Source: Raillietiella orientalis
Lineage: Eukaryota
Reading direction: 5' to 3'
NCBI GenBank assembly: GCA_036172245.1
Contig: JAYWIR010000023.1
Location: 1 to 64,000 of the forward strand
Length of the DNA stretch: 64,000 bases
Every line of letters starts with the position of its first letter. Position 1 is the first letter of the stretch. Both the position numbers and the translations under genes were made by a program. The notes under the pieces were generated by a model. That model worked only from the letters and a program-made list of their open reading frames with translations, was not told where the DNA came from and did not search any database. This document shows, piece after piece, positions 4,608 through 37,800 of the stretch.

Positions 4608-4699
4608 GTGCAGAACTTGTTGCACCCCAAGGACTTCCAAGCGGGTGGTATAGTGCCAGTAATGTGAATGTGATTTTAGTATGAATGTGACGTAAAACT

Positions 4700-9400: not shown

Positions 9401-9774
9401 GAGTGAATCGTGCTGAGGGAGGAGCCTCGGGCTGAGCTCCCGAACGCCTCTTTTGCAGAAGCGTGCGCCTCGGATGATGGTGGCTTTTTCGGAGGCGTGC
9501 GGCAGAGGCTGAGGATGCACCAGGATGCATGTAGCAGGTTTCGTGGTAGGAGGGGGAGCGAAGAATGTGGACCCCGTCGCGTTTTCGAACTCGTCTCCCG
9601 AAACCTTCCGGAGAAAGGCCAACTGTGGAGCAGGGGCAGGGAGGCAGGCATGATCCCTGCGCCATTGCTTCGCTGCAGTGGAGGGAAGGATACTGCGGAT
9701 GCTGCTCAGACGTCCGACGAACCGTATCGACGGCGCCCGGACGAGAGTTGGCAGGGATCTTGTAGGCGTGTCAG
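6454..9774. repeat. Direct segmental repeat, copy A (~3.3 kb)
   Basis: Matches 11466-14785 at a constant offset of 5,012 bp (e.g. ORFs 7196..7972 vs 12208..12984 and 8608..9312 vs 13620..14324). About 98-99% identical in the core by eye. Confidence 0.97.
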
Positions 9775-11465: not shown

Positions 11466-14400
11466 CGTCTGCGCGCTGCTCCTCACATGCGCGTGCCACG
11501 AGAGGTTCATCCTCCTTCGATACGGAGGAGCGCTGACGCTCCCCTTGCGGGATGGAGGGGAGCCCTCCCTCCACGTGATCCTCCTTTTCTTCGCGGCCCA
11601 CCGTCACCCGGGTGAGCTCGCCGTGCAACCGATCTGTCTTGGTGCAAGGGTCATCCGGTGGATGCCTTTCCGCGAGCGTCGCAGAGCCTCCGCAACGAGG
11701 AGGAACTGCCGGGAACACGGCAGTCCGTCGGCAGTCGACGCTCCACTCTCCACGTGAGCTCACCTCCCTTCCCGACCGCAGCGCGGACGACCGCAGGAAA
11801 ATCAAAAGAGACTGCGAGAATAAACACTTTCCGCTCCAGCTGACCACTCGCGGATTTCCAACGGCGGCACGCTCTGCCACTCGACGGTTCGCGTCCGCCG
11901 GTCGCAAAGCCCGGGCGCTACGAGCGTGCGCTCGTTGCCCGAAATTACAGCAAGATATGGCGGAAACCGCTAACGTTCCCTCTTCCGAGGACAGCAACTT
12001 GGCTCCAGACCCTGTCGCCTTCGCCCGCATGCCGGAAATGGCCACGGCTTGCGCAGAGCATTTTGTTCGCTGATGGCCTTGCGCAATCCGGGACGGCTGG
12101 CGCTCTGCTGTGCGAGTTCCTTGTGGCTGTGGCAAGCGCGTGCTCCTGAGAAGTGCCGGCGGCCCACCTGCCCGATTTTGCTCCTGGAGTGGGCAAGGGA
12201 TGGTTGATTAAGGTGGTAGGAGTTCCTTCGCCGCCCGACCGAACATCTGTAGAAACCTATAGACTTTGTGTGCGTAGACAAGCGCGCACAGCCGCTGCGT
12301 GTGCAAAAAAAAGGAGTCATGCGTCCCGGGAAATGGGACAATGCGGAAACGAAAACGCCATATCACGGGGATCGCCGCGCCCGAGCCGGAGAGGGAACGT
12401 GCACCTCCTCCCACTCTTCGATTCCCCTTGACGGAGCCCACCTTTCGCGCCAGCCTTCTGCTTCTTGTTCTTTGGGCAGTCCTTTGCCCTTGAGCTTCGA
12501 GCGAACTTCCACTCCAGAGGCGGCGCTCACGCCTTCGTCCATAAGGCGGCTGCGTTCCTCGCAGAAGCAAAGACCGCTTTCCGGATGGCATGTCCCTACG
12601 GCAACCTGCCGCTACCTGCCACACCAGGGAGCCGTGGCTCCCGTTCCCACTGCAGTTTCCTGGAATGCGCGGCTTTCCGTACGCAGGAGCCTCCAGACTG
12701 CTCCAGCTTCCTTTCCAGACTGAAGGTCGCTCTGCACTTGTGGGGAGGATGAAGACTGGAAAAATGTTTACGGCAAGAGGCTGTGAAGCGTCTGCGGGCA
12801 GCGCAGTTGGCGTCACGGGTGCAACTCCTCCTGAAGACCTGCGCCCTTCCATGCGTGCGCGCTGCGGGTGGTATCCAAAAACGTTCACGTGGACCACCTG
12901 CGCGCACGTCGTTCGCATCGAAGAACTCGGATGAAAGTCGCGTTTCTTCCGTGTTCTGGACATCCAGGAAGCGACCAACTGCATCCACTTCGCTACGAAG
13001 AAAAGCAGCGGGCGTCGGGGACGTTCTTAGCCCCATCCGTAGCAGCGCTTCTTCTCGGTCGCAAGCGTGTCTCCCAGAACCCAGCGCGGGCCGCTTAATC
13101 TCCCAACGGACAAGCGCGTCCAGGGATGGGGAAGTCATCACAGCTCTCAGCACCTTCTTGCCCCGTGGAAGTGCCCTAAAAGGTTCCAGGAGCGTGGCGG
13201 CTGCATCGCTCGGACTGGGCGGCAGCTGAGCCGTCGAATCGCGTTGTGCAGACCAGCGCTTGCGCGCTTGCACGCTGAGTACGAGGACGCGCGCCGAATA
13301 CGCGGAACGGGGATGAGCTACTTCCCCGTTCCGCATCCCATCCGGAAAATCCGCCTGTGGTCGCCACAGCGGCCAAAGAGGGTAGGAGTGGGTGGGATGG
13401 TCTCGGACATCTCCCTACAGGACAGCTTCTCTCCTCCAGCTGCTCGCAGCACCTGCACCTCCGGCGTGAAGTGGCTACATCGCCCCGGGCATCATATTCC
13501 TCGCCACGGTCGTTTGCAGCATCCCGCGTTTCACAGGTCGGTTCTGCGCCTCTCATCACGCGTGGGGCAGCGACGAAGAGCCCAGCGGACGTACCAGCCA
13601 CTCTAGTAAACTGACGAGTTCACTCGTCCTCTTCGCTTCTGTCGAGACGGCGAGCGACGCGGAAGCGTGTGAATGCCAAGCGACTCCCGCTCTCGGCGCG
13701 CGAATCCCACGGGCCACGTAAACCGACCCCCACGAGGTGCCCGGACCGATGGCCTGCGGGCCCACTGGCGGATATACGGCACGGAATGGTACAGAGACCG
13801 AGGGACCATCGTTGGCCTTTTTGGCAGACCGAGTGCAGCGCAGCCGCAAGCAGAGAATGGGACGCCCCCAGAAACGTTTGTCGCATCCGACAAGGGACGT
13901 ACCCGTTATCAAACGCGCCTGCAGTGCTCCCGGCGGGGTTCGAGCAGTCTTCTGGGACACCGGGAGGAGACTTAAAACGCGGAACCACCTCGTCAAGCCT
14001 CTTTCGCGAAGCGGCGCGCGCTCTCGCGCCGTCGCGGTGTTTTGAGAGAGATAACGTGGACACGACGAAAAGCAACGCCGCATTGTGGCGATTTCCCGAA
14101 ATCCCCAGAGGGGGGCCACGTGATTGCATGCCGTGGTTGTTTCGGGGGCAGTGCTGCCTCCCAAGCTCTAAACCAGGTTGCCCTTGACCGGATGTCACGC
14201 AACGGGACGCGCTTGCAATCAGCGACCCGTGTCGCAAGCCCAGAAGGGCGATGCATCCCGCGCTTCCCAGCACCAACTCTGCAGGACGACGGGTGACAGG
14301 GGACCACACAACGAGTGAGGCCATTCGGTTGGAGAGCCGGAAGAGTCCGAGCTTTCATGGTGCTTGGAGGAAGGCGAGTCCGCGAGCGCGGTGGACGCGT

Positions 14401-14785
14401 CCTTCACGGCGAGAGTGAACCGTGCTGAGGGAGGAGCCTCGGGCTGAGCTCCCGAACGCCTCTCCTGCAGAAGCGTGCGCCTCGGATGATGGTGGCTTTT
14501 TCGGAGGCGTGCGGCAGAGGCTGAGGATGCACCAGGATGCATGTAGCAGGTTTCGTGGTAGGAGGGGGAGCGAAGAATGTGGACCCCGTCGCGATTTCGA
14601 ACTCGTCTCCCGAAACCTTCCGGAGAAAGGCCAACTGTGGAGGAGGGGGAAGGAGGCAGGCATGATTCCTGCGCCATTGCTTCGCTGCAGTGGAGGGAAG
14701 GATACTGCGGATGCTGCTCAGACGTCTGACGAACCGTATCGACGGCGCCCGGACGAGAGTTGGCAAGGGGCTGTCGGTGTGTCAC
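11466..14785. repeat. Direct segmental repeat, copy B (~3.3 kb)
   Basis: Near-identical to 6454-9774 and separated from it by ~1.7 kb of unique GC-rich sequence. Confidence 0.97.
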
Positions 14786-17700
14786 TCACCGAATTCAGTG
14801 CCGGTAATGTTCGGCTTCGTCTTGGGATTCGGCTCTCGAATCAACGCCTTCCGTGTACGCAGTTGCCGTCATTCCACCTTGAGATGGGGCGTTTGGTCAC
14901 TTGGGTAGTGCGCAGGCGAACTTAAATTCCTCTTCAATGGCAAGCAACAAAAGGTTGTCTCTCAACACATCGCGGCCCGATCTTAAGCTCTGGACAGACC
15001 ATTACGTCTGCGGCCTTTAGGAGCAGCATTTTTCCGTGATGCCGAAGAAAAGTTGGATGTTTAGCTCTCACATGGATGAAGAGAGAGGTGCGCGGACTGC
15101 AGGTGCGCTAGCGGAGCCGGACGAAGTGGGAGGTTGCTTCCGCAAAGCGCCTTTCGCACGCACCACGCCCGTCATAGCCGTCGTTCTTCCTTTCCTCAAA
15201 TTTACTTCAGCCTGTGTGGCCAATGCTGTTTGAACGACTTGCTGTCGTGCAAAGTCAAGGAGCCTCCACTGTGCGGCGATTCGCGCTGGGGAGTTTCCTT
15301 CACTTCTTTGTTCCTTCAAATCAATCCTCCGCCCATTTCGTCGTCCTTGTAGCCGCGCTGCAAGTGTGCGGGTGCCGGTGGTGGGCCTTGACCAGAGCGT
15401 CTGCTCACGAGCTCCAGGAGCGCGTTCTCACGGCAGCGCGGGTGCGTTTTGCAGTCGCCGAGGGTAGGAGGCGCTTCTTCAGCCGCATTCCGAAGGGATG
15501 CTTTCGCAAGGAGGTGGCCGTCACGAATCTCGAACTCAGGATGCGATGGCCGGCAGGACCGCCGGAGCCACGAGAACGGATGGACGCGGTTCGCTTGCTT
15601 CCTTTGTTCCGCATCCCGAGGCAGCGCAAGAGGGACGCCGGCGAGCAGGGAAAAGTACAGAGAACCTGCGTCTCGGCTAGCACTTGGCCGAGGTGGACTC
15701 AAAGACAGGCGCGCGTCCCCAGAGCATCACCACGGGCGAGGGAACACGAGGGAGAGGAGGCTGCTCCCAGCGTCTCGGCCGTCCCGATGACCTCGCTCTC
15801 CTTGCCGAGCCCCGGAGAGATCGCAAATATGGATAGGTGCGAGACGCGAAGGGACCCGAGGAAAGTCCCTCTCTGCCCTTCGGGGGCCGATGGAATACCC
15901 CGTCCTGTGCGTGTGACCATGACCGCTGTCGAAACGCCCGAACGGTGCCCCAGGGAAAGGAATGGGAGACGACCAAAGCAGTGAGCGAGCACGGAGTCAC
16001 GCGCGAGCCCGGAAGACGGCAGAGGGAACCCTGAAAATCGAAGGTGCCTGTGCGATCGGCGGGGGCATTCCTCCGATGGGAAAAGCAAAAAAAAAAAAAC
16101 GAAGCCGGGGTCTTAAGCGGATGGTCTGCGGGACGGAACACCATCCGAATTATCCGAGAGTAGACCGCAAGAGCGGATCTTCTTTTCGATGGCACTTCTT
16201 CAACTCAGAGGACGCTTTCTTCGCGCGCAAGAGATGTGCACCCTGCGCGTTCCGGAAGAAGGGGCGCTTCCGTCGAGCGAAAGTGGCAGCGGCACCCGGA
16301 AAGCGACGCACTCGACTCGCATGGACAAGAGGAGACTCTGGCTCCGGGAGACGTGGAAGGGGGGACAATGAAGGAGAGGGGGAAATCGTGCGTTCGCGCA
16401 ACGGAAGGGTCCTCCGCACATGCTCGGGTCGCGTCCAGCTACCGACTTGCATCTCGGTTCCACGAGAGTCGCAGCGAACTCATCAGTGCGTGAACGCGGC
16501 GGAACGTGCGATTCCGTGAGACCATCGAGGGACTCGCAGGTTCCCGAGTGCTAGCGCGGAAGGCAGCAGGTGCGGTGGATGCTGCTGTCGGGGCAGTAGG
16601 TACACGGTTGCCAGGAAAGAGCTTTTCCGAAAGGTCCCGCCTCTGTCCGGCGTCCGCTCTTCCCTCGGCGGATTCCGGGAGCACCGCTCACGTTTACGCC
16701 GCGGACGAGTCCTCATCCCCCGGAACGGCCAGCTTACTCTACGAAGTACCGACAGCGTCCTTAAGGCTAAGCAGCTGAGCCCGAGAGAGTACGCCCCGGA
16801 CCGCTGCCACCACGGCCGCAATCGTCCGGCGCACCGGCGCGCGGATGGGATCGCGAGCGATCGCTCCAGTGTGTTGACGCGTGCGCATCCATCGGCCGAC
16901 CCGAGTTCGCTCCTTCAAGACCAACTGCAGCGCGAACCCATCACGGACTTTGCACTCACGGTGACACGTCCTTGCCACCGCAGGCACCCTAATTGATCCC
17001 TTCCTGCACCATCACCCGTCGCCTCCCTCGCATCGTCCTGCGTCACCAACCTTCGTCGCCAAAGCGCGCGTCTGCCTCTGCCATCACCCTTGTCGGGGAA
17101 TCCGAGGGGGGAGACGGCAGCCGTGTGACGTCACGCGTCCGCGGTCCAGCGCCATTCGAGGGGCAACGCGGGAACGAACCTTGGGTCAAGCGAAAAGGCC
17201 CCCTAGGAGAGAGGAAAACGCAGAGTCCGCCTTTCCAGGTCGCGGAATCTGTTTGCGCAGCGCCCGATCCGGAACCCTTTGCTCCCCCGCGCGATAGTCG
17301 CATCTGCCAAGCATTCGAACGAGGGCGACACCTCCGCCTTCCGCACCTGTCGCATGGCAACGATCGGAGGCCAAGCGTGGTGCTCCGCAGCTTTCCCCTT
17401 TCGTGGAAGGTTTGGCGACGGTCCCCCTCCCCTCCCGCCCGCCGAATCCTTCCCGAACGAGCGCCGGGCGAGGGTGCGGATCTGCTTGGACCGGGCGGCA
17501 TTTGCTCCACCGCGTTTGCCCGGTGCGTGCCTTTGGGCTCGGACCGCGGTTTGCTGACAGAGGTGTGGAGGATGAAGAGGCGCTCATGCGCGCAGGCAAA
17601 GAGAAAATTTTTCTCCTGTCGACGAAAAAATTGGAATTTTCGAGGCACAGGTCCTCGAACACAAGGAATCGTCGTCTAGGCAACGTTGCCGTTGCTGGTA

Positions 17701-18099
17701 AGTTTTTTCAAGTTGCGGGCGAAATTTCGCGTGTCTCGCGCGGTGCTTCCACAGCGGAGAAAGAAAGAAGAAAAAAGTTATTCCACTTGAAGCTGCGTAT
17801 TCATCGTTTTTTTTTTTTTTTTTCATTCTTTCTTCGGTAACCAGCAGCAACGTTGCTTTACTTCCATAAACTCAAGTGCACATCTTTGCTGCGGCATTTG
17901 CCAACAAGCTCGAATGCAGATGATGCTCGTAACCTGTAAGGCATGAAATGTCATCCGCCGGCGCACCTGAGTTAACCATTCGGCTATTTCTTCGGCGTAT
18001 TCGAGGAGGAACCGCAGCGTAGCGTGCAACCCTTGCGCGATTCTTTCAGGCCGCTTCCTGAGAGTGCTGGGCCTGAGGACGGGAGCAGCTGCAAGACAG

Positions 18100-18191
18100 A
18101 TGAGGGGTCTCCACGTCTTCCTCCTCGTGCTTGCCGGCCACGTCTTGACCGCGTGTGCAGCGCCACCGAGCAGCGGGTCTCCGTGCTACAG
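18100..18191 (+). CDS. Putative first coding exon encoding a signal peptide, probably spliced to IDE paralog 1
   Basis: ATG at 18100 gives MRGLHVFLLVLAGHVLTACA-APPSSGSPCY: basic N-region, hydrophobic core, A-x-A cleavage motif. It ends in a strong donor AG|GTAAGC in phase 2 and is preceded by an acceptor TTCTTTCAG at ~18049. Confidence 0.7.
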
Positions 18192-21100
18192 GTAAGCCTC
18201 ATTTCGTCTGCTCCCCATTCCCGGGAGGATCCTGCATCCGGTCGCGTCTGCGTGAGTATGCCGACCGCTCGCCCTCCTTCCGTGTTCTCGTTTGTCTGTC
18301 CTTTTCCGCTGTTGTTGCAACTTAGGTTGTTGTTGTTCTTGTCGTTTTGAAGTGACGACTTGGCGCGCGCTTTCTTGGTTCGCGAATCGCGTCGGTTTCA
18401 AGGCAGGATAACTGCAGGCTCCGAAGGACGCCACCGTGTTGGTGGGCGGCCTTCGCACGCGGACCGGTCCGCGGCGCGCGTGTGATCCTAGGACTGAAGC
18501 AGCATCTGCAGCCTGACTACGACTCAGGCGTTTTCGCCCTTCGACACACATCACCGTGGAAACGCGAAGCAGGGAGGCGTCGCTGATGACGTGAGCGGGC
18601 CCGTTCCCGGTCAAGCGAAATTCATGAGGCTTCTTCCCGTGCCATTAGGCTGCGGGAACGCGCGGAAGGCCCGCGTTACTCCCTCTGCCGCAGTGTTTCG
18701 TCAATGCGCGTCCCGGTTTGACGCAGTCGGCGTGCTTTCCTCACGGGAGAAGGCGACGGCAGGCACGTGCGCGAGAACGAAGACCGCCTGACCGGCCGGT
18801 GCGCGTTCGCGCACGCGTCCTTCTCCCCGACGCGGCAGCCGAGGGAACGGGACGAACGGCACCCGCGACAGTGGCGACCGCGGCGTCGTCTGGAAACGGA
18901 ACTGCACCGGGAAGCGCACAAACGGGAAAGCACCGTTAGCGGCGCCGCTTGCGGCCCGCAAGTGCAGTTAGGGCTAAAAGAACGGAATTCCTGCAAGAGC
19001 TCTTCCTTTTGCCTTGCGTACCGGGTGCCCGCAGAGATTTCTTTCGAGGGAGCGGAGACCGGGGAAGGGTTGGGGCCGCCCTTGAAAGCATCGGCGACCG
19101 GCGTTCCGTTGGAGTGCGGTGGCTTGCACCAACGAGTTGCGCGGTCATCCGCTTGGGAGCGCCGTTCTCCTCAGCAGAATCGCAGGCGAGCTCGCGAGAT
19201 CGATGCACGACAGATGAAGCGCCTTCTCGAAGTGACCCCGTCCTGCTGCCGCGCCACCGTTTCTTTTCGGGAAACGCGCAGGGTTCCCTTCCACCAAGAG
19301 CGTTCGCTGTTCCTCTGAGGTTCGTACTGCGCGCCGAGCTCCCTGCAGATGCGCCCGCGCGACCGACGACGCGCGCCGCTGGAAATTCGCAGAACGCGCT
19401 CGCGTTCCGGAGATGATCCTCCTCCTTTCCGTTTCCTGCGCGCGTTTCGCGATCACCGAGTCGCGCCAGCGGCCGTTCCCGTTCCCGCTTCGAGGTAGAG
19501 TTCGGGAAGCGCTTCTCTCGCAGTCCTCCCGGACTAGGCGATGGAAGCGAAGAGGAACTGCATGTGGCACGGCGAGCGGGCATTTGCGTGCCCGTCGACG
19601 GGGATGGGCGGTGAGCGAGGAGATGCGCTGGGCAAGCCCGTCCGGAATCCACTCAAGAGGGTACGATCGCTCGGGAATTCCCTTACGACCGCTTGGCTGG
19701 TCTGCAGAGGGGAAAGCCGGAAGGAGAAGACCTGATGTGGAAGACCACATGGTCACGTCAGCCACCCGAGGCGATGCGCCGAGAATGGGTCGGAAGGCGA
19801 GGGGCTGAGCCGCCGAAGACGTCCCTGCATCTCATCTCAGGCAAAGGAGCTGCGAGGATCTGCTTCGAGGTCGCCGGTGGCGGAGAGGGAAGAGAAAGAG
19901 GAAAGCGGGGGTGAAAGACGAGCGTGCAGCTGCCGGCGACCCCCCGCAAGCGAGTCGTCTCGCAGTCCGCGCCGCGTTCCGCGGAGAGGAAGGTCCTCGG
20001 GAAGACTGCCGGGCGCGGATGGAGCAACTCGCCTCTCTTGGCGTACCGAAGATGGCGGAGCCAGGAAACTTGCGCGAAAGGCAGGACGAGGGCAGAGCTG
20101 AGCAGAGGACACGCGCACTGGACCCCTGACGACCGTTGCGATGCACACACCGCGTCCAGCGTTCCACAACCTCGGGTGCAGCGAGGGAGCGTGATGGCGT
20201 CCTGTGCGGAAGCGGGGTCGCGTGCTTCACCGATCCAAGAGTGAACTCCGGCACAGGAGGTCCATCAGCAATAGCGGCTGTCTTGCGTCGACGATAACGG
20301 AATCCAATCGCGGTCCGGGCGCAAAGCAGCCGGCCGCACGGGGAGGTGGAAAACGTCGTTGGATAGCCCTCCCTCCCGCCCTCCTCCGGCTAGTGTGCGC
20401 AGAAAGCGCCCTGTTGGCTCCAGTTCGGCGGAACAGCGCCTGCGTGCTCGAGCGTTTCCAGCTGGCGGAAATGGGCGCGCGACCGTAAGCACTTCAGCTG
20501 ACGAATGGGCGGCGACCTAGCTGTTGCAAGCGCCTCGAGCTGCTCGCGCGTCGACACGGAGCTGTGACCCTCGCCGCCAGTCCCGGAGTCGCGCCAGAGT
20601 TCGCGGTCGACCTGCGCCAACAGCACGGCGGCTGCAGGTTTGTCCGCTTGGACCGGGCGTCATCGGGAGCAGTGCGGAAGGCAGCTCTTCGTTCGTTCAG
20701 AAGTGGATTGGGATGGATCCACGGAGAACAGCTTCTGGAGCACGGTAGCAAGCGGTGCTCCTGATTCGGCGCACCTCTGCGTTCCCCGGGGAAGCATCCC
20801 GGCACCCGCATCGGAATGCTGCGCACGTAAAAGGGAAGAAACGCAGGCGCGTCGCACCGCCTTGGGAAGTTTCCTGGTTGGCGGCGCCACTTGACGTGCA
20901 AGGACCAACACCAGCGCCGTTCCCGTTGCAGGCGATCAGGTGAAACTCTTGAAGTTCGCGGGGAACTCGTGGCGCCCTTCCTCCGTATCTTCCTCCACCG
21001 TCGCACGCGAACAAAACCGAAGAAGCTGCTCGATTCTCGAGGACGCATGCCGCGGAACGAAAGCGAGCCTGGCCAAAGACCGTGGAGCCTTCTTAGCGTG

Positions 21101-23705
21101 TTCTCTGGCAGCCGCAGAGTTTCCCATTTCCCATCTAAGAGAAGATGCGATCCGTGAAGGCTGGTGCGATTTCCGCAAGAAGCAACCATCGCGAGTCTCC
21201 GACGATGGAAGCATGCGCGCCGTTTCTTCTGGTGGAAGCTCTGGATGGCAAAAGATCACTTCACGGCAAGACTGAAAGGCACAGCACGTTCCCAGCGGGA
21301 AAACATTCTCAGGTCTTAGCAACTACGTGTTGCAGCTGATGTCAACGGTGGGAAGATGCGATCGGCGGGTATCTTCAGTGGCAAGTTCGTCACACGTGAA
21401 ACGTCAAGGTCTGCATCCAAGAGATTCTGGTTCGCAGTTTCCCTGCAGCCGTCGCTCGCATTCAGAAAATTTCAAGGATCGCCGTCCTCTGCGAGGAACA
21501 GCCGTCTTTCACGATGCTCGTCGTCGCGCGTAGCAGTTTGTAGACCTTCGACTCGGCGGGGCGAAAGAGCTTCTGCCGTGGGGCCAGCGAAGTTTCGCTA
21601 GGGGGTATTCGAGCTGCTGACTCGTTACTGCTTCCGAACGCCCAGGATGCCGACCACCCGGTCCAGCGTGTACTCCATCGTGGCTGCTCTCCGGAGCAGG
21701 CTCGGATTGCCAAGATGAGAACGCAAAACGCACTCCGGGAAGCTGACCGGACTGTCTTTTGGCTTCAGCGCGAGCGTGACCGCCCAGTGGGTGGACGATT
21801 CTCTAGGAGACCGCTGCTTCATCGGACTCTGCCACCAGCCAACTTCGCTGCGGAACCACCGCCCGGATGCCGGAGGCGGATGTCAGCATGCGCGTCCCGT
21901 CGTTGGCACGTTCCATTTTCAGGAAAGCGTGCAAGTGTCGTGGCTGCTGGCGTTCCGCCCGACCCCACTTGCGGAGCCACGGGCCGTCCAGCCAGCCTAG
22001 ACCGGATCGTACCTTATCCCGCCGCCATGCTCGCAGCATGAGGGCGCTTCCGCCGAAGAGCGGCGCCAATCTTACGCGTTTCTGTTCAGCGAGCGTTTCG
22101 CGGGGTCCGTCGAAACGTTGGCACGACAACCGGACGCCAGCGTCGCTCGACTCGCAGATGGGGAGCCACAAGCGAAAGCGTGGCCCCAGCTGGTGTCTTC
22201 CGTTGCTCCAACGGTAGAACCCTCTCAGTAGGAGGGGAGAGCCGACGGAGAGGGAAGCGCTTTTTCGTTGTCGCTGCCGTGGCTCCCGCCTCTCACTATT
22301 TTAGAAGATGCCATGAGCGGCATGTGGACGTCGGCGCAGGAGCGGGCTTTTGCAACGCCATGCAGTCGTCGAGGACAGGGAATCGAGTATGTAGCGGGGG
22401 CAAGGAGGGAAAGCTGCGTGCACAGGGCGCTGGCACCATCCTCCGTTCTGCCCGCCTTCTTTGGCACCGGGCTCGCTGGAGCGCACGTGAAGGCATTCCG
22501 ACGCAAAGCAGCTCTGCAGGGGAGCATCCTCCAACTCGAAGAAACGTTGCGAGGGCACCGACTTCGGAGTGGCCGCGTGGTCCGGGGCGCTCCGCGTGTC
22601 GTCTGTGCCTCCGGGAGCAACTCAAGGCGGAGAGGAGTGCCGCAGGGTTCGGTTCTCTCGATTGCGTGGCAGCGCTCCCCAGATGATTGTGGGGGCAAAC
22701 GCGCCCGCTTCAGAGGGCACCCGATCCGTCCGTCCCAGAAGGAGATCGGTAATTGAGTGCGCGTTGCCGACTAGCGGGTGGCTCCATCTGCCAGAAAAGG
22801 TCGTCTGCCCAAGACACTCTGAAGACCCGCATCCGCTCTTTCAGGCATAGAACACGCAAGTGGTACGCAGGGAAAGATTTTCGGGCTCCTTCCGAGAGAT
22901 CTTGGAAAAAAGAGCTGTCCTGCTTTCAGTGCGCGACTGCGGACGTTCCCATCGCCTGCTCCGGGCTCGCAACAAGGGCTGGTGCCGTGGCTGCTGCCTC
23001 CGCTCACGTGGCACAGGGAGCCGTCACGCGTGAACCGTTGTGGGGGGTCGTCCAAGACATCCTGGTTCGCACTGGTACCTGTGGCTGTCGCTCGCATTCA
23101 AGAAATTCAAGCCGGCGCTTTCGGCGTTCGTTAGCAGCCTCGTCCGCCCGTTCCTGTTCGCGCACAAGCGGAAAATCCCTCCCCTTTCTCGCCCGCGCAG
23201 GGGGGACGTTCGTCGTCCCGCCACCTCGCGGCCGACAACGCTCGCTCGCACACGGCATGGGTTGCGGATTGCTGGAAGGAGACCCTACGGGGTCTGCTTG
23301 GGCCGCGCCATTCGGAAGAGCGATCCGTGCCGTTTTGTCCGAACGTGCTCTCCTGGTGCGCATTTGGCCCGTCCCACTTCCTTATTTGCGTTCCTGCGCT
23401 CCTGATTTTCGCATCAGCCGCATCGCAGAATCCTGGGCCAGCTCTCCCTCCCTGCCGGGACTGGTATGCCCCCTCGGGCGGAAACGGTAAACCGCAAAAC
23501 ACGTCTGGATATCCGGAAAGAAAGCTGCGCGGATGCTTGCGACACGTGCCGTGTTCTTCCGCGAGTTGGCGAGCCCATGGGAACGGCAGGGGGTCGCTCT
23601 TCCGCTCAGAACGGCAACTCGTACCCCGCCTTTCGGCCATGGACTCGCCGAGCGGTCTTTACGAAAAGAAGCGTGGCTGCCTTTCTACTTTGTGCTTATT
23701 TCCAG

Positions 23706-26700
23706 CAACAGCAATGCCTTTTCCGGAGGCGGTGACGGCGTGGCGAAGAGAGTCCGGGACATAGTCACCAACAAATTGGACAACCGACTGTACAGGGGTC
23801 TGGAGCTGAAGAATGGCATGACGGTGCTGCTGATAAGCGATCCGACCACGGAGCAAGCCGCAGCAGCCATGGCTGTGGGAGTAGGTGAGCACCGCGGACG
23901 GATAAGACGGGTGGAGCCTACCTGCACCCCCATGGCTCTTGCAGGCTACATGAACGATCCCGACGACGTGCCGGGATTAGCGCACTTTTGCGAGCACATG
24001 CTTTTCCTGGGGACGAAAGAATTCCCCGAAGAAAACGGCTACTCCAAATTTCTGTCGGAGCACGGAGGTTACTCCAACGCGTACACCGCGACCGACTTGA
24101 CCAATTTCTATTTCAACGTGCAGCCGCAAAACCTGGAAGAAGCCTTACACAGGTACCGCGTTGCCGAGGTCGCGGTTGGAGGACGTGCCTCCAGCAAGCC
24201 GCTTTAGATTCTCGCAGTTCTTCATTTGTCCGCTTTTTAACGAGGATGCGACCGAAAGGGAGGTGAACGCAGTGAACCTGGAGCACGAGAAGAACATTCC
24301 AAACGACGACTGGAGGCGATTGAATCTGGAGACGAGTTTCTCGAAACCTGGTCACCCTTACGCCAAATTTGGGACAGGTTCATAGCCTTGTTATCTGTTG
24401 GCCAGCGAGCGCATTTCTTCCCACGCAGGTAACAAGAAAACCTTGCTGGACAGTCCCAAAGAAATGGGCATCGACCCTAGGAAGCTCGTGTTGGAATTCT
24501 ACGTCAGGTGGTATTCGTCCAACATCATGTGCCTCGTGGTTCTGGGTGCAGGTACACGTGCTGATCGATGATGGTCAACCACGTGCTCTCACGTGATGAA
24601 TCTTTCAGAGACACTGGACGAGCTGGAGAGGATGGTGGTTCCAATCTTCTCTCACGTGCCGAACAAGAACGTCAGTCTTCCGCGATGGTTGGACCAACCG
24701 TACGGAGAAGAACAAGTCAAGAGGATGATGGCCATGATTCCGATCAGGGACTTGCACACCCTCCGGATGCACTTTCCCATTCCCGACCTGCAGGAATTCT
24801 ACAGCGTTCGAGTGAGAAGTGTTTCTTTTCTTCGCGGAGCACCAAGTTCTGCCGCGCTTCCCCCGCACTGTCGATGCGCAGACATTTTCGCGCGGGTCAG
24901 CAAAGAAGCACCGGGTCAACCGCCGCTGTGATTTTAGCCTTTCGCTTACCTAAGCTATCACATCGGCCACGAAGGAAAAGGAAGCCTTTTGTCGGAACTG
25001 AAGCTGGTCGATCGCTGGGCTACTTCGCTCTCGGCACAGGATGGCGTGGGGGCTAGAGGATTCGGCCTGTTCACCGTTGCGATCGACCTCACCGAGGATG
25101 GCATCGAGCACATCGACGATATCTTGATCAAAGTGTTCCAGGTACAAGGTCCGAGTCACGGTGCGAGGACTGTTGCCGTAGTACATCGCGATGCTGAAGG
25201 AGGCGGGGTTCCAGCGGAGGATCTTTGATGAGATCCAGCAGATGCGCAAGCTCGCCTTCGAATACAAAGACAAGGAGGATCCCATCGACTTCGTGCGCGA
25301 CACAGCCAAGTACTTGATGGTAACGACTGTGCTCCGTTTTCGAAAGCTACACCACTCCCCAGGACTATCCTTTAGAGGACGTTCTGTCAGGACCGTATCT
25401 GCTGCGTGAGGCCGATGTCTTGCGGATCAAGCAGGCTCTCGGCTATCTGAAGCCGACCAACATGTGGTAAGTCGCGGCGGTCCTGCTTTCGCGAGCGGCC
25501 CCCGATGGGCGAACTCCCGCAGGATGCTTGCGATCAGCAAGAAGCTCGCGATTGCTCCTGGATACGTCTGGCTCACGGATCCGTGGTACGGGACGCAGTA
25601 CAGCGTTCGGAGCTTCAACGCGGCCTTTATCGAGGTACGTAGTCCAGGTCCTTCGCTGGGCGGGCGTACCAACGGGTTGCCTCCTGCCGGTCAATTAGCC
25701 GCCAGCCCTCCCTTCTTTTTTTTTTTTTTTTTTGGTTCGCTAAGTACCTCAGAGCCAATCTCGTGCCTCGCGGTGCACGTAGCTCTTTTCTTTTTTTTTT
25801 ATACGTTAACACACTGTTTTGTTTCCACGCCTCTCCGCCCGCGGAAACCCGCAGGAAGGCGTGTATTTCTTCAGGATAGGGGGTACCCCGGGATGGGGTC
25901 CGCCCTGTGAATCCAGGAAGGTCTCGGAGTCCGTTCCTCTCACGCTTGGGGTGGGATTCCCCCCTGACGGGGGGAATGTACCTCCAACCCTGGTTGTCTC
26001 CGAAGGGGAACCCCGAAGGGAATCTCCTTCCTCATTCTCTCCGGAGCGACACTCCCCGTAATGGGGGGTGGTCCTCTCCATCTCAACTTCTCCGAAGGGA
26101 ACCCGGAAAGGATCCGCTTGTAGAAATTTCTTCTCCGGAGGGAACCCGCAAGGGAACGGATCCTGTTCACTCCTTTGAAGAACCCCGAAGGGACGCTTCG
26201 GAAACTCAGAAGGGGCGCTGGAGCTTCCCATAGGCGAATCGCTCTCGCTTGCTTCCTTGCAATCCGTAAAGAGGCAACGACTCGGAGGGACCCCCCTCAA
26301 CGGGGAGGGTCTGCTCCTTTGAACAACTGGAGAGGTGCCCGTGAGGGCTCCTGCTCCATCTTGAAACCGGAGGGGGGATCCGCTCTCCGTTGCACGACCG
26401 GTAGGGGAACTCTCCACTCTTTTATTCCTGGGAAGACCCGAAGGTCGACTCCCATTGTTCCGGCCTTCATCGGGGGCCTCCGGCTGACGACCACCGGTGC
26501 CACGTCCAAATGATTAGACCAACCAGCGCCGTTGCAGGAGAAACTCGCAATCCGACGACGCAGTGGCGTCAGAGTTTCTGCCGAAGTATGCGAACCCGCG
26601 ACTCATGGTGTCACACGCGGAAGCCTTAACCACAAAGCCTCCGACGCGGGCAGAAATCCTTCCGGTGTCCGGGCCTGGTGAGGTTTCCCATGTTGAGTCA

Positions 26701-29700
26701 AATAAAGCCGCAGGCTCCACTCCTGGTGGTGCCCTTTCGTCAATTCCTTTAAGTTTCAGCTTTGCAACCATACTTCCCCCGGAACCCAAACACTTCGGTT
26801 TCCCATAAGCTGCCCAACGGGTCACGGTTTTAACGCCGGCGGATTGCTGGTTGGCATCGTTTATGGTTAGAACTAGGGCGGTCTCTGATCGCCTTCGAAC
26901 CTCTAACTTTCGTTCTTGATTAATGAAAACATTCTTGGCAAATGCTTTCGCAGTAGTCCGTCTTGCGACTATCCAAGAATTTCACCTCTAACGTCGCAAT
27001 ACGAATGCCCTCGTCTGTTCCTATTGATCATTATCTCGAGTTCCGAGAACCAACAAAATAGAACCGAGATCCTTTTCCATTATTCCGTGCACCACTATTC
27101 CGGCACCATCGTCTGCTTTGAGCACTCTAATTTTTTCAAAGTAAACGTACCGGCCATCCGCCGACACTCGATGAAGAGCACCGACGGACGTACCAGAGAT
27201 TTCTACTCGGATCGATCTGGGATTCGCCAGGATGACGATCCGACCGTCGCAAGCCAAGATCCAACTACGAGCTTTTTAACCGCAACAAATTTGGAGTATA
27301 CTTATGGAGCTGGAATTACCGCGGCTGCTGGCACCAGACTTGCCCTCCATTAGATCCTCGTTAAAGGATTTAAAGTGTGCTCATCCCGATTACGGGGCCT
27401 CATATGAGTCCCGTATCGTTCTTTTTCGTCACTACCTCCCCGTGCCGGGAGTAGGTAATTTGCGCGCCTGCTGCCTTCCTTGGATGTGGTAGCCGTTTCT
27501 CAGGCTCTCTCTCCGGAATCGAACCCTGATTCCCGTTAGCCGTTAAAACCATGGTAGGCGCATAACCTACCATCGACAGTTGATAAGGAAGACACTTGAA
27601 AGATAAGTCGCCTGTACGAGACCGTTGCGATCAGCCCAAAGTTATTCAGAGTCACCAAGAGTTTCTGGGTCCGCGAAGGGAACGCGTTGGTCCTGTTCTA
27701 ATAAAAGCCCTCCATCCGCAAGGACGAAGTGTTGGAAGAATGTATTAGCCCTCCTTTCTTGGCAAGGTGTCGGAAGCGCTCCTACGAGGTAGATGGAGAT
27801 GCTGGCGGAAAGGGAGTCTCCCTGTTGAACCTGCACGCTGGGCGCCCGCGCGAAATTTCCAACGGTGACGGCGGCAAATGGATGAGACGGCGGCAAGACT
27901 TCGGTGCGGTCAGGTCCGTTCGCTGAGTCCGCTTCCGACGACGGAAGCGCTCACGCTGGAGGCGATGTCCCGCGCACACCCGCGTTCTTCCGTTCTCGAA
28001 GTGCTCCGCGATAACCAGAGCGGGCAGCTGAGCGACGGATCGGAAGCGCACCTCTCTGTCCGAAGGCGAGCACTTTGGCGCGGGAGGAAAGGAGGCGTGC
28101 GGTTCCTTCGCTCCCTTCGCCGCAGCGCTCACCCGCAAACGATGGATGCCGCTGCGAGGGAACGCACCGCCGCACCTCGCTGCGCGAGGGGCGCGCGCGA
28201 CGCTTTCCTCGCCGGAGCTTCCTCGTAGATCGCGCAACGGCACGCCAACGGCACGGATCGCGGGAAGCCCCCGCAGCATCGGAAGTCTTCCCTCTGGAGC
28301 TGGGAGGGTTGGGATGCAGGCCGAAGTGCAGAGCCCCCTTCCGTGCGGTGCTTTCCGACATTTGGGAAAGGATGCGCTGCTGGATGGTGATCTCACCCGA
28401 CGATGCTTTCCAGGCTCTGGGCGGCGTTCCTGCTCTCAAGAATTTCTTCCCTCCGTCGCCGAACAAGTTTATCCCCCGCAGCCTGGACCTGTATCCTCTA
28501 GCGGCAGCACCGCTGCCTTGGCTGCCGCCAGAGAAGGAGAGCCTGCCTCTGTATCCGTATTTGCTCCACCAGTCCCCGCTCTTGAACCTTTGGTACAAGC
28601 AAGACAACGAGTTCCTCACTCCGAAATCTCTCCTCTTTCTGGAGATCAAGAGTCCTGTGTCCTACGAGGACCCGAGGCACACCTGCATGCTCATCCTGTT
28701 TACGATGTTCTTAAAGGACTCTCTAAACGAGGCCTCGTACGAGGCCGGCTTGGCGGGGCTGGGCTACAACCTCAAAGCGACCAAGTACGGAATCACGGTC
28801 AGTGGGAGGGGACACGGGGATCCCGCCGGGACTGAAGAGGGAATTCCATAACGCAAAACCGCCGCTGCAGATGACGCTGAGCGGATACAGTGACAAACAG
28901 GACACGCTGCTCTCTCAAATCCTGGAGAGGATGGTTGCCTTGCACGTCGACCCGAGTCGCCTGGAAGTCTTCCGGAGGCAGGTACTGTTGCAGCGGACGG
29001 GGTTGGTTCGGCCACTCGCGGCGCGCGCAGCTCGGCAGGAATCTGGCCAACTTCCTGTTGGAGCAGCCGTACGTGAAGAGCAGCTACTACATGAACGCTC
29101 TGCTGGTGGAGAAGGTGTGGACGACGGAAGAATTGCAGAGCTCGTTGGAAGGTGAGCGATCGGGGCCGCTCGCTAACGAACCTGCACGAACGCCCTGGCA
29201 CCGCAGGAGTCACCGTCGAGGACATGCGTCAATTTCCTGCCCGCTTCTTCGCCGACGTCTTCCTCGAATGCTTCATCCACGGGAACGTCAACGAACAGGT
29301 CAAAGTCTGCTTTCGAAATTAGCTCCTCACTTTGTTCTGGGCGGTTCGTTTCCCACGCAGAGGGCGCAACAGGTCCTGCGATTAATCCAAAGCAGCTTCC
29401 GCGACAGCAAACCGATCCCGAAGGAGCAGATCACCCTTTACAGGGAGTACATCATGCCCGAGAGTGAGTAGCTGAGCCGTGCAGGAAGCAGCGGTAACTC
29501 GGATGCAACCACCAACAGAGTCTTCTTACCTGTACACGCTGCCGTACGATGCTCACAAAATCCATGCCGTCGAAGCGTACTATCAGTACAGTCCCGAAGG
29601 CAACCCCAACCACGCTTTGATGCAGCTTTTTGCTCAGATCGTTCGAGAGCCCGCGTACAGCATCCTGCGCACCAAGGTGGGGCGGGCGCTGCGCTTGCTT

Positions 29701-30440
29701 GCCATCTTACTGACCATGTTCGTCGCCCCGCAGGAGCAGCTGGGTTACATCGTGCTCTCCTCCATCCGCAGAATGAACTGCGTGCAAGGGCTGCGCATCG
29801 CCATTCAATCGGACAAGGATGCGGCTTACCTGGACCAACGGATCGAGCACTTCTGGCGATGGTTCCAAGTAGGCTAGGAGGCGGTCCTCTTCGTCCACGG
29901 CTTCATTCTTTCCTCAAGGGGTACCTCCTCAACATGTCGGAGGGAGAGTTTGAAAATCACAAGGCCGCACTGCGGAAACTGCTGCTGAGGAAGCCCAAGA
30001 AGCTGGCCGAGAGGACCGGCAAGCTGTGGGCGGAAATCGCGAACCACGAGTACAAGTTCAACCGCGACACCCTGGAAAGCGCCGACTTGGGCGTGTTGAC
30101 CCGCGAGGACGTGCTGCTGTTTTACGAGGTAGCTGCCCCTCCCTTAGCTTCACGCGCGTTCCCTCTTTCATCCTTAGAAATACGTGAGGAAAGGTTCGCG
30201 GTTCAGAAGGAAGCTGTCCGTCTACGTCATGCCGTCCGGACACAACGGGACGTCCGCGCGACCTCAGGACGGCGACGCTGTAAGCTGCCCTTTCCTCGCT
30301 CTTTTCGAAACGGGTGGGAACGTCCTTTTCAGCCGCATCGTATCGAGAGCATCAAGGACTTCAAAAGCGACCTCAGCCTCTGTTCTTTGCCCAAGCCATT
30401 CTATCCCGCCGAACTCTTCAAAGTCCATCATTACGTGTAG
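23706..30440 (+). CDS. IDE: Insulin-degrading enzyme-like metallopeptidase (insulysin, M16A), paralog 1, GC-rich; about 19 exons in this span, plus the probable exon at 18100-18191
   Basis: Motifs [28 protein letters not shown] (HXXEH zinc motif), [41 protein letters not shown] and LRTK/EQLGYIV. GT-AG introns are mostly 40-75 nt, with one large intron at 25635-28413. Stop TAG at 30438-30440 (...KVHHYV*). No disabling lesion was found when joining exons by eye. Confidence 0.93.
25704..25717 (+). repeat. Left target-site duplication of the intronic 18S-SINE insertion
   Basis: AGCCCTCCCTTCTT, running into T18 (25716-25733); 13/14 identical to 27747-27760. Confidence 0.8.
25791..26654 (-). mobile_element. 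tRNA-derived SINE-like element, copy 1 (~860 bp, with A-tail)
   Basis: The minus-strand head TCTGCCCGCGTCGGAGGCTTTGTGGTTAAGGC...GGGTTCGCATAC has A-box-like and B-box-like motifs (B box 26586-26597). The body is homologous to 45345-46040, and the A10 tail reads as T10 at 25791-25800. Confidence 0.75.
26655..27749 (-). pseudogene. 18S rRNA: Internal 18S rRNA fragment (~1.1 kb), decayed; not a functional rDNA unit
   Basis: The minus strand carries GCTAATACA, GTGCCAGCAGCCGCGGTAATTCCAGCTCC and AAACTTAAAGGAATTGACG, ending at CCGGACACCGGAAGGATT. Both 18S ends are missing, and there are substitutions at normally conserved sites (GACGAAAGGG for GACGGAAGGG, GCTTTATTTG for GCTTAATTTG, CAGAGACCG for CAGATACCG). 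Confidence 0.97.
27747..27760 (+). repeat. Right target-site duplication of the intronic 18S-SINE insertion
   Basis: AGCCCTCCTTTCTT, starting where 18S similarity ends (AGC microhomology). Confidence 0.8.
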
Positions 30441-33400: not shown

Positions 33401-34866
33401 AATTGGATCGTTGAGCGGTGCAGGCTTTTGGTTTGGTTTTCTCTTTCCTCCAGGAAAAATGGGACTTGCGGAGGACTTGTGCAACCGTTGCTGCGATCAA
33501 TTCGATCTCGTCGAGGCGATTCGTGGCTAGGAGGGAGACGCCGGGCAGAGTTTATCGAGAGACGCTCCCATGCATCCGTCCGACTTCGAAGGGAGGGATG
33601 AATCGAACGGGAAAAGAATTCACAGTGCACGCATATCGTCCTGGGACAGCGTTTTTTCTGGGAGAAGAGCATGTGTCCGAATGGAGAGATGTTTCGGTTG
33701 CCGATCATTGCATGGAGAGACTCAAAATGACTCATGAAGTCTTTGAAATCGTTCTTTGAGTTTTGCAACTGATTTGCAACCGAACCGCTTCCTAGGGACA
33801 TTCATCCCGAAGTGAACTGCGGTTGCTAAAGGGATCGGAGGAACCCAAGAAGTGTGCAGCGCGTCGCCTCGGAAGTGCGGAAGTTCGCATGGTAAGCATT
33901 TGCAGCTCACAAAGGCCGTAACCTCGGATACGCTTGCTGTGGAATGTCATCGTGCTGGTGGCGATAGCACGTGCGTGGGCAGGAGAGAAACGAGTGAGGA
34001 AAGCAGAGCAGTTGTGGAATGGATGCAGAGGGCACAAAGTTCCCTTTTCTTCGATGCCGGCAAAGAGTGTTTCGCTTCCCTTATTGGGAAAAAAAAAGAA
34101 AACGTCTCAAATCTGACTCAAAATGACGTGCTCCAGATGTGCTCGTGGCTTTCCAATGTTCGGAGCCCCCATTCCTGGCGGCTTGGTTTCGCTCTCTTAA
34201 TTAGCGCTGCCTTGGCAAAATGAAGGTGCTGTTAACTTTACTTTGGTCGCGCCACCGGCTGTCTTGTATGTTTGCGTCTAGAATGCCCTCTGGAGGTTTC
34301 CACTTTCCTGGTCTACTAAGGTTGTGGTTGCTGCTTTGCCTTTGTTCTGTGTAAAGTGGTCTTTCCATCTTACGCACAGGATTGTTCTCCAAGCTTTCGA
34401 AATGGAACGACCAGGGGGAAAAGTGAGAACATTCTATCGGTTGCTCGCGTGGATCTCCGTGTCAAGTCCGTGGACGGAGCGTGTCTTTATCGGAGAGTAA
34501 CCAAGTGCATGAAAGATCACTTTGCAGGTCCTGCATCTCTGCTTGCAGTACGTAGCGAGACGAAAGCATCAAAGTATCCTCGAGAATGTGCCTCGTGTGT
34601 GAGCCCTCGTATGCTTCTGCTGACGTGTTTATATAGATTCTTGCAGGAGCCCTAAGCATGCTGAAAAACCCCTTAAATTTCCCATAAATTGCAAGTGTTT
34701 ATAAATCCCATAACTTTTTTATCCCCGTTTTTACGGTCTGTGAGCTCTCCGTAAACTTTAATTGTAGGCATGTTTCGTTTATTGATTTCAGCTGTTTAAT
34801 TTATTGAGGAGGTTGACTATTAGAAGCATAAAAAAGGCCAATACTTGCCAACCAATTCTAAAGAGA

Positions 34867-37800
34867 ATGGTTATGATTAAAGCAAATGACATTATTAACT
34901 ACACCTTGGATGATATCATTAAATCGAACTCAGACAAACGGTTGTATAGAGCTGTTGAATTAAAGAATGGCATGAAAATTTTGCTTGTAAGTGATCCGGA
35001 TACTGACAAAGCAGCTGCTGCAATGGGAGTTAATGTAGGTATGTATTCCATAGTCTTATAACTGGGTTTGCATTTAATTGAAAATAAATTTAGGTCATTT
35101 AAGTGATCCTGATGACATTCCTGGCCTAGCCCATTTTTGTGAGCACATGTTGTTTCTTGGAACAAAAAGATTCCCTCAGGAAAATGAATTCTCTAAATTT
35201 CTGTCAGAGCATGGTGGTTCTACCAATGCATGCACCTCCACTGATACAACAAATTTTTTTTTCGATGTATCTCCACAACATTTGACTGAGGCTATTGAAA
35301 GGTAATAACTAATTTCTCTGTCTAATATTTATTACCTTGTGCTTCCATATTTGTTGATGTCATTGTATATTAAGAAATCGAACTTTCTTTTCAGATTTGC
35401 TCAGTTTTTCATTAATCCTCTCTTTAATGAGGACTCAACTGAAAGGGAAATAAATGCAGTTCATCTTGAGCATGAAAAGAATATTCCTTTGGATAACTGG
35501 AGGTGGATACAACTGGAAAAGCAGAGTTCAAAGCCTGGTCATCCATATAGAAAATTTTGCGCAGGTAAAAAGTATTTGATTGCAGATCCATATGCGGTAC
35601 TTAGCATTTATATTGTTTATCCTACGTAGTCACACCACAATGATGGCCTCTAACTTTGAATTCATGAATTTGAAAACAAGATTCATGAATTAAAAGTTGG
35701 AGCCATCAATAAGATTTATCCATTCATGGATGAGAATTTATGATTTTTTTCTAACTTGTTTGCTAATTTTGAAATCCAGCATATTGTGGGGAGTATATGT
35801 ATAATGCATGTTGGAACATACGTCCTTACACTAGTTGCTATTTATTTCTTCAATTTTGTACTTGATTTGTCGATTATTGAGGTTTTGCACATGGAAATAA
35901 ATTATTTCTTGAGGATACACTCGGGAAACACTATATGTGAATAGAAATAAGTAATGAACTGCTGAAAACTTATGAGAGTTAAAGGAAGAACAAAGCTTAA
36001 TATCAGTTTTTATTGTGAGTTCTAACACTCTTAACTTATTCATTAATGGGTTTGTATTATTCCAAACCCATGCATTATCAAGTGAAGCAGGTGACAAGTA
36101 AAACGAAGATGATATCCTTCTATAATTTTCTAAGCATGCAAGCAATGTTTTTCCATAAGCTGAAATATATGAATTCATGAGTTACTATAACCAAATTAAA
36201 GATGAATTGCTAAAATACAAATAGCATATGTAAAAAGAACTTATATAATCATACACTCAATGATGGAAGTTTGAAATAATTTTTTTGAACGTTGGATTGC
36301 ATCGTGTTCTCCAAGTGGACAGTATTGAGTATCTTTAGGAACTTGGTTGCAGGCAAAACATTTTAAAAAGAGAAATTGCAATATACCCATAGCAGGATCA
36401 CCTTAGTTTCAACAGAGAAGCAGAATTTGAGACTTTTCAATCAAGTTTAGAATGATGAACAGTTTATGGGATAATTCGCCCAGTTGAACAAGTACAAAGT
36501 ATACTTTTCATGCTCAGAGTGGAGGAAAGAAGAGCATATCCAAAATTCAGAGGAAAATATTCTTCAGTGTGGTGGATTATCTATCTTGTTTGTATTGTTA
36601 GGTTTGCTGAAAAATTATGATAGTAAAGCAATTCTTTGGTTTCGAGTCAGAGGATTCAAAGGCATTGTGGTGGAAAAGGGGAGTCATTCAAGATGCAAAT
36701 GTCCATATCAAGTGTGAATGTTTTGATTGCATTGTGACATTCATGCTGATATCAGAACAGTGATAAATTATCAAATATGTGAGATGTCTGATATAGAATG
36801 CAACATTAAACTCCTGTCTAACCATATTTTAATTTCAATTTTAATTATTGTACTTTCAAGTTTTAACTTGAAGTACATGCTGTGTAGTGTGCATAATATG
36901 TTTTGAAGTTTATCACTCATGAAGAGAGCTTGTTGTCTACATTGTGATAAACAACAGCATTCTTTTATAAATATGTGTGAAAGCTGCTCATAAGTAATCA
37001 CAATGTAAATCCACGATTAGCAAATATGGTCAAAATTTTGAGAAAGCAATGTGAATGAGAACGCAAATTCAGGGAGGGTTCTTAAACTGATGGAGTGTTC
37101 AATGAATGCAATTTTGCATTGATTTTAATGTGCCTCTTACACTAGCAGTATAGCAACTTTATGGTGGCGACTGCTTTTTCCCTGCATTTACAGCAATGGT
37201 TATTCATTCTCTGATCATTGTGATTGTATAGGCAATTAATACAAACAAGGAAAGCTTTCTGTATCAGTGGAAGAAGAAATCGAATGTTATCGATCTATTT
37301 GGTTAAGCAGATGTTGAAAATATTGTTAAAGACCTAAGTTTTGATTTTTTTGTTTATTTTTAGGAAACAAAAAAACACTTCTGGAGGATCCACTTAAAAA
37401 TGGAATAGATGTAAGAAAAGCCTTGCTAGAGTTTCACAAGACTTGGTATTCATCTAATCTCATGTCTTTAGCTGTTGTAGGCAAAGGTATGCATTTCAAA
37501 AGGCTTTTTGATGTTTGCATTTTTGTCTTTTCTCACGTTTTTTCTCTCACCTTTTTCAATGTTAGCCATTGAACTTGTCTTGTTCCAGAATCATTAGATG
37601 ACCTTGAAAGAATTGTGGTATCGAATTTTTGGGAAGTAAAAAATATGAACTTACCTCTTCCGAAATGGTTGGATCATCCCTTTCAGTCTAATGAAGTCAA
37701 ATCAATGATGAAAATGGTCCCAGTTAAAGACATCCACAGGATCATAATTCTTTTTCCGATTCCTGATTTGCAAGAATTCTATAAGTCTTCTGTAAGTTCT

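Follow-up and report, generated by a model that had tools for sequence, protein, structure and literature searches.

Does an animal insulin-degrading enzyme (IDE) ever reach its substrates through the classical secretory pathway? The question is raised by a 64,000-nucleotide stretch of DNA from Raillietiella orientalis (GenBank assembly GCA_036172245.1, contig JAYWIR010000023.1, positions 1 to 64,000 of the forward strand; 'the window', whose numbering we use throughout), where an earlier note had proposed that one of two tandem IDE genes, here called P1, acquired a signal peptide from an isolated upstream exon. Since animal IDE has no signal peptide, the route by which it gains access to extracellular substrates such as insulin and amyloid-beta has long been disputed. 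The rarity of signal peptides in eukaryotic M16A peptidases, animal IDE included, from which the proposal started, agrees with the literature: they are predicted for 1.7% of eukaryotic M16A sequences and for 0 of 308 chordate ones, mostly in protists and fungi and in very few arthropods (PMC8774118). Having analysed the locus computationally, we lean, with some reserve, towards the view that P1 is translated from an ATG at position 18100 via an upstream signal-peptide exon and that its product is secretory.

Searching the window by tblastn with three IDE proteins located two tandem M16A/IDE genes on the + strand: P1 at ~23.7–30.4 kb and P2 at ~34.8–41.3 kb. Gene models were built with a purpose-written spliced protein-to-genome aligner and four references, the remaining junctions being set by eye, and extend over 23706–30440 for P1 (counted from exon 2) and 34792–41554 for P2; both frames are open, at 989 and 984 residues, respectively. 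As judged from its sequence, P1 is a complete gene of the M16A insulysin/IDE type and a predicted zinc peptidase. Its 989-residue frame and its Pfam domains – Peptidase_M16 (PF00675), M16_C (PF05193), M16_M (PF16187) and PqqF-like_C_4 (PF22456) – reproduce the four-domain, ~1000-residue M16A architecture. The top PDB match of the N-domain is IDE (3tuv, 7.4e-35), with whose HFCEH the inverted zinc motif HxxEH of P1 (HFCEH at residue 74 of the protein read from exon 2 onward) is aligned. The distal Glu segment, of the (E)xxNAVxxExEKN type, and the substrate-contact Arg/Tyr of the C-terminal half (LRTKEQLGY in P1, LRTQEQLCY in P2) are likewise intact in P1, just as the earlier note had read them; in IDE, the Glu of the distal segment is a zinc ligand.

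How did the two genes arise? P1 and P2 show 49% identity across 986 aligned positions, and 17 of their 18 introns share both alignment column and phase, with the 18th differing in phase in the gene model, which may be a boundary ambiguity. Both genes were placed in a quick LG+G4 tree of 39 rows with long branches, which included bacterial, algal, amoebozoan, fungal and choanoflagellate M16A and no apicomplexan row. Here P1 and P2 are sisters (support of 100 in the Shimodaira–Hasegawa-like approximate likelihood ratio test, SH-aLRT), nested within a 19-row metazoan IDE clade (SH-aLRT 99) among long-branch animals, the placement within animals not being resolved by this quick tree. The clade excludes the choanoflagellate, fungal, amoebozoan, plant/algal and bacterial M16A; two bacterial rows sit at the root of the tree, and P1 does not group with the bacterial lineage. 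The M16A phylogeny thus bears out both the tandem duplication and the animal-type ancestry that had been claimed for P1, and the comparison supports a lineage-specific, old tandem duplication of animal IDE. By the same kind of evidence, P1 is the derived copy: it is P1 that changed, since it has the longer branch (0.64–0.69 vs 0.49–0.54 for P2), fewer cysteines (7, as against 13–14 in P2; in a set of 117 homologs the median is 13, and 12 have 7 or fewer) and no longer the ordinary start Met, which P2 has kept. The low cysteine count fits, if weakly, with an oxidising compartment.

The lost Met is what makes the 5′ end of P1 a problem. The Met of P2 (ATG 34867) lies ~23 residues before the conserved core, as in most homologs, whereas P1 has NAFSGGG at this place. 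Exon 2 of P1 begins with C 23706, behind the acceptor tract CTTTCTACTTTGTGCTTATTTCCAG that ends at 23705, and its alignment with rat/human IDE sets in near residue 47. After this acceptor, the first in-frame ATG is 23818, well inside the conserved domain as had been reported, and within a conserved strand. P2 and other IDEs share the residues just upstream of Met 23818, and over the 22 codons that precede it the differences between P1 and P2 fall mostly on the third position (6/5/15 by codon position); these codons therefore appear to be translated, which puts the start upstream of them. The earlier note had gone one step further and concluded that a phase-2 upstream exon is needed. While the premise that translation begins before 23818 is supported, the conclusion had overlooked ATG 23533, which is located 5′ of the acceptor in the open frame 23491–24204, and so an upstream exon is not strictly forced by the frame alone; what opposes ATG 23533 is its codon statistics, which we give below. 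A start codon supplied by a trans-spliced leader ending in AUG was also considered and rejected: exon 2 starts at codon position 3, so the frame would run into a stop.

The candidate for the missing 5′ end is the exon at 18100–18191. From ATG 18100, 30 codons plus 2 nt (AG) run to 18191 and are followed by the donor CAG|GTAAGC; the 92-nt exon, its donor, the acceptor at 23705 and the phase-2 join between them are all reproduced in the sequence. Donor and acceptor position weight matrices (PWM) were trained on the remaining 36 introns of the two genes. By this measure the donor at 18192 scores 10.6 bits, more than any of the 36 training donors and more than any other of the 1007 GT sites that the + strand has at 4000–23700. 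The exon also ranks 1st of 513 ATG-to-phase-2-donor candidates at 4.3–23.7 kb and is the sole one among them to encode a signal-like peptide. Signal-like peptides were recognised with a crude heuristic: the n-region had to be basic, a hydrophobic 8-mer had to lie in a stretch of 10 or more uncharged residues, and positions −1 and −3 had to hold small residues. It passes one of 206 ATGs on the + strand (that at 18100) and one of 198 on the − strand, and when the 19.4-kb region upstream of P1 was simulated 400 times with a first-order Markov model, a signal-like ATG open reading frame (ORF) ending in a phase-2 donor arose in 8 of the sequences with a donor PWM of at least 5, in one with at least 8 and in none with at least 10; as the heuristic was devised once the candidate peptide was known, these scan and simulation figures are somewhat favourable and are not clean p-values. 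Applied to 174 real homolog N-termini, the heuristic passes four, at least one of them bacterial, and so is not promiscuous; the rate agrees with the 1.7% given for eukaryotic M16A (PMC8774118).

Codon usage adds to the picture. The synonymous-codon score of the exon, 2.18, is reached by 4.7% of non-coding windows and corresponds to the 30th percentile among the coding windows of P1; per codon it amounts to +0.073, inside the range of P1 exons (−0.04 to +0.30), as compared to −0.014 to −0.19 for rival first exons. The GC content at third codon positions (GC3) is 0.80, vs 0.75 for P1. Finally, 50 nt 5′ of ATG 18100 there is an acceptor-like site, cgattctttcag|G (intron end at 18049; PWM 7.6, with 29 of 1283 AG sites at 4–23.7 kb scoring as high), with no ATG in between, so that, together with the donor downstream, the exon may have splice signals on both sides; positions 18050–18099 would then be a possible 5′ untranslated part of exon 1.

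Is this exon joined to P1? The phases match: the 18100 exon ends in phase 2, as P1 needs, and the frame across the join 18191|23706 stays open through the later exons. Among the 357 AG sites at 18230–23705, 43 are in-phase acceptors (PWM of at least 4, at least 15 open codons), and only 23705 leads into a positive coding score (+9.3; next best −1.3). A codon scan trained on the P1 coding sequence, which recovers all P1 exons and a decayed retroelement at 1.9–4.6 kb, detected nothing convincing as coding in 6–23.7 kb, although small or low-complexity exons could escape it. Pfam searches of the 246 ORFs of at least 90 residues outside P1 returned just RVT_1 and P2's own domains, with 0 families within 18192–23705. 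On these grounds we infer a splice from 18191 to 23706, across a putative intron 1 (18192–23705) that is 5514 nt long, GC-rich and carries no detected coding signal or Pfam domain.

In the explanation that we favour, an animal IDE gene would have undergone an old tandem duplication, after which the first conserved exon of P1 lost its ordinary start codon and the 5′ end of the gene was replaced by the signal-peptide exon. This exon would be cis-spliced over the 5.5-kb intron to 23706 and translated from ATG 18100; the precursor of ~1019 residues would enter the endoplasmic reticulum (ER) co-translationally, its signal would probably be cleaved after ACA, and mature P1 would be a soluble zinc endopeptidase that cuts small peptides, either extracellularly or within the secretory pathway. 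The predicted N-terminus, MRGLHVFLLVLAGHVLTACA|APPSSGSPCY, has the tripartite layout of a signal peptide by the heuristic (mean Kyte-Doolittle hydropathy of 3.0 over the 8-residue core, site ACA|A): the n-region MRG, the uncharged core LHVFLLVLAGHVLT and the ACA|A cleavage motif are followed by a Pro/Ser/Gly-rich linker that meets the enzyme about where the solved IDE structures begin. The junction, the cleavage, secretion and the substrates are predictions read from the gene, and the sites of action that the earlier note had offered (gut, saliva, venom, haemolymph or seminal fluid) rest on nothing in the data.

Several observations weigh against this explanation. A first intron of 5514 nt is unusual for P1, as 16 of its 18 known introns measure 40–73 nt, the others being 126 and 2779 nt long. 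The full codon log-odds of the 18100 exon, −3.1, fall between those of non-coding windows (−10.9 ± 6.1) and P1 coding windows (+13.2 ± 5.9), and 9.8% of null windows match it, although an intermediate score is expected of signal peptides because of their atypical amino-acid make-up. The context of ATG 18100 (caagacagATGa) is not, in our judgement, a strong Kozak context, and the acceptor at 23705 is good and not exceptional, with 20 of 1284 AG sites scoring as high. The 18-residue uncharged core could serve as an uncleaved anchor, and the signal call is that of a crude heuristic only. The N-glycosylation sequons NVS, NMS and NGT listed in the earlier note are indeed present in P1, but the count of three lends secretion no support: P2 has two, and the median of the 117 homologs, which are mostly signal-less, is five. 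Nor did database searches yield an ortholog near enough for its N-terminus to be compared: the best matches to P1 are equally distant across many phyla, with 30 top matches spread over nematode, sponge, fungi, algae, amoebae, insects, fish and bacteria, the closest N-domain match being 58% identical (word-based search with exons 2–3) and the closest middle-domain match 49% identical (exhaustive HMMER search with exon 11, 1064 matches), with a word-based search with exon 11 returning 0 matches among 1159 candidates.

Which other explanations could account for these data? The one that survives best, while unlikely, is that the 18100 exon is the first exon of another, unrecognised gene, e.g. one for a small secreted protein whose coding signal is weak, and that P1 starts from a weaker 5′ exon such as 23257–23486, or from a non-coding 5′ exon and Met 23818. 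The short introns of P1 favour a first exon nearby; 23257–23486 is phase-compatible, has a usable donor (PWM 7.5) and would leave an intron of 219 nt; and exons that are small or of low complexity are the kind that could evade our codon scan. However, the codon use of 23257–23486 is non-coding-like (−0.155 per codon, GC3 0.59), and between 18.2 and 23.7 kb, where Pfam found nothing, no in-phase acceptor except 23705 opens onto coding-like sequence to which the 18100 exon could be joined instead. A start at 23818, in turn, would remove ~37 conserved residues whose substitutions are third-position-biased.

It is also conceivable, if rather improbable, that the exon is used as proposed and that the hydrophobic segment remains uncleaved or the protein is retained, making P1 membrane-anchored or a resident of the ER, Golgi or lysosome. 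The uncharged segment L4–A21 comprises 18 residues, which is at the long end of the range for signal peptides, and two homologs (P0038 and P0069) begin with anchor-like segments. What speaks for cleavage and release is the A-x-A motif with a Pro/Ser-rich c-region directly after the core, and a C-terminus (...FKVHHYV) that has neither a KDEL-like end nor a hydrophobic tail.

Highly doubtful, in our view, is an unspliced reading of P1 from ATG 23533, which would give the protein a 58-residue Arg/Ala-rich extension (MLATRAVFFREL...) and possibly a mitochondrial presequence, as in the long isoforms of canonical IDE. The frame is open from 23491, many homologs have presequence-like N-termini, and a basic in-frame extension precedes the Met of P2. 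Yet the 58 codons from 23533 have a synonymous score of −10.9, which 75.8% of non-coding windows equal or exceed and to which no P1 coding window (0%) drops, they display no GC3 periodicity (0.62/0.55/0.60), and the stretch ends in a 25-nt pyrimidine tract followed by CAG, which is acceptor-like. Finally, GC-rich DNA yields many Leu/Ala/Val-rich open frames and the full codon score of the 18100 exon is not clearly coding, but with its donor the best of the 1007 GT sites, the scarcity of equivalents in the simulations at the two higher donor thresholds and a synonymous codon use that resembles that of P1, the exon is very unlikely to be a chance feature of non-coding sequence.

How does the P1 that we favour, with its signal-peptide exon, compare to the known members of the family? 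It shares with canonical metazoan IDE (PDB 3tuv, 2g47) the four domains, the HxxEH motif, the distal Glu and the C-terminal Arg/Tyr. Canonical IDE has no signal peptide (PMC8774118) and starts either ~20 residues before the core or with a presequence-like extension; P1, in contrast, is missing that Met, is ~40–58% identical to other IDEs and has about half the usual number of cysteines. Pitrilysin/protease III (PDB 1q2l) is an M16A enzyme with an N-terminal signal and matches the P1 N-domain at 7e-17. In the apicomplexan insulinase-like proteases, which include the toxolysins, an M16A clam-shell is sent through the membrane by an N-terminal signal, as we propose for P1; the INS family of Cryptosporidium has 22 genes (PMC8092296). 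In relation to pitrilysin and the apicomplexan secreted insulinases P1 would be of independent origin: it stems from the animal IDE line and would have gained its signal via a new 5′ exon. Among the rare signal-bearing eukaryotic M16A predictions, one Caenorhabditis auriculariae model and one eukaryote-like fragment pass our heuristic; they are uncurated, and none is close to P1. Hydrophobic N-termini also occur in a few uncurated animal models among our matches. We know of none of these rare models that has been characterised, and a limited literature search for signal-bearing or venom IDE turned up no animal IDE that has been characterised as secreted by way of a classical signal.

Beyond putative exon 1, P1 consists of 19 exons, all on the + strand. 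Exon 2 (23706–23884) encodes the linker and the start of the conserved N-terminal domain (Peptidase_M16), exon 3 (23945–24152) the HFCEH zinc/catalytic motif and exon 4 (24208–24377) the distal Glu motif. Exons 5 (24429–24551) and 6 (24609–24811) are followed by exon 7 (24938–25141; Peptidase_M16_C), exons 8 (25182–25319) and 9 (25363–25463), and exon 10 (25523–25634), which ends at the phase-0 donor gag|GTACGT. Exon 11 (28414–28797; Peptidase_M16_M) lies beyond the 2779-nt intron and is followed by exons 12 (28871–28981), 13 (29031–29151), 14 (29207–29304) and 15 (29361–29463). Exon 16 (29519–29676) ends in ...ILRTK and exon 17 (29734–29868; PqqF-like_C_4) starts with EQLGY...; these are followed by exon 18 (29919–30128), exon 19 (30178–30279) and the last exon (30333–30440), which ends in ...FKVHHYV and the stop TAG at 30438–30440. 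Exons 3–9 and 12–18 come from the spliced alignment, and the junctions of exon 19 and of the last exon were set by eye. The intron at 23885–23944 is 60 nt long, a multiple of three, and stop-free, so its retention would add 20 residues just before HFCEH; homology shows that it is an intron.

The 2779-nt intron contains partial 18S rDNA on the − strand (26780–27831), seen as three adjoining small-subunit (SSU) rRNA matches (351, 110 and 85 bits) that cover positions 95–1116 of the 1831 of the eukaryotic SSU rRNA model. The intron is ~50 times as long as its neighbours, probably because this fragment was inserted. The aligner had proposed a micro-exon at 27793–27815; as this lies in the 18S sequence, the 25634/28414 junction was used instead. 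Beside the fragment, at 25847–26483, lies one copy of a dispersed repeat whose other copy, 77–82% identical, is downstream of P2 at 45344–45898.

The comparator gene P2 (34792–41554, + strand) is an intact IDE gene with a strong acceptor at 34791 (PWM 10.0) and the ordinary start at ATG 34867. Between the two, in frame with the Met, lies the basic, acid-free stretch LFNLLRRLTIRSIKKANTCQPILKR. A candidate mini-exon ending exactly in ATG|GTAAGC at 33889–33891 (donor PWM 8.7), if joined to 34792–34866, would give MLFNLLRRLTIRSIKK..., a start of the MLFNLLRRL type, besides the start at Met 34867. This product resembles the presequence-type N-termini of many homologs, and one may guess at a long isoform. 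The two genes flank a sharp drop in GC content near 33–34 kb, and differ in GC3 (0.75 in P1 vs 0.43 in P2) and in the GC content of their coding sequences (0.55 vs 0.41), which might be put down to GC-biased gene conversion or an isochore boundary; the window as a whole is GC-rich (52–64%) up to ~33 kb and AT-rich (33–39% GC) at 34–40 and 48–57 kb.

The region upstream of P1 has features of its own. A run of ~20 T at 17800–17822, in an AT-richer patch (~17580–17960) of otherwise GC-rich DNA, lies 300 nt upstream of the 18100 exon and is a possible promoter-proximal or nucleosome-free region. The decayed retroelement (~1880–4600, + strand) has RVT_1 matches at 2608–3018 and 2906–3574 in different frames and a coding-like signal over 1.9–4.6 kb; its reverse-transcriptase ORF has one weak protein match (26% identity). 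A 3.3-kb direct repeat, 98% identical, GC-rich and Pfam-free, occupies 6453–9773 and 11465–14784, with the copies 5012 nt apart; a segmental duplication, a very long terminal repeat and an assembly artefact are all conceivable origins.

What would a secreted P1 mean? The weight of the finding is limited by the key splice, which is inferred from sequence. We regard as evenly balanced the broader proposition that an animal lineage turned a duplicate of a cytosolic/mitochondrial IDE into a conventionally secreted enzyme, through a new signal exon, the loss of about half of its cysteines and faster change, and so obtained an enzyme dedicated to degrading small peptide hormones, insulin-like or other, outside the cell. 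If this is true, P1 would be a natural example of classical IDE secretion in Metazoa and would demonstrate that an IDE-type fold stays functional once it has gone through the secretory pathway, with P1 and P2 forming a sequence-matched pair in which to follow the changes that accompany relocation, such as fewer cysteines and a new N-terminus. For R. orientalis itself, it would suggest that peptide hormones are controlled extracellularly.

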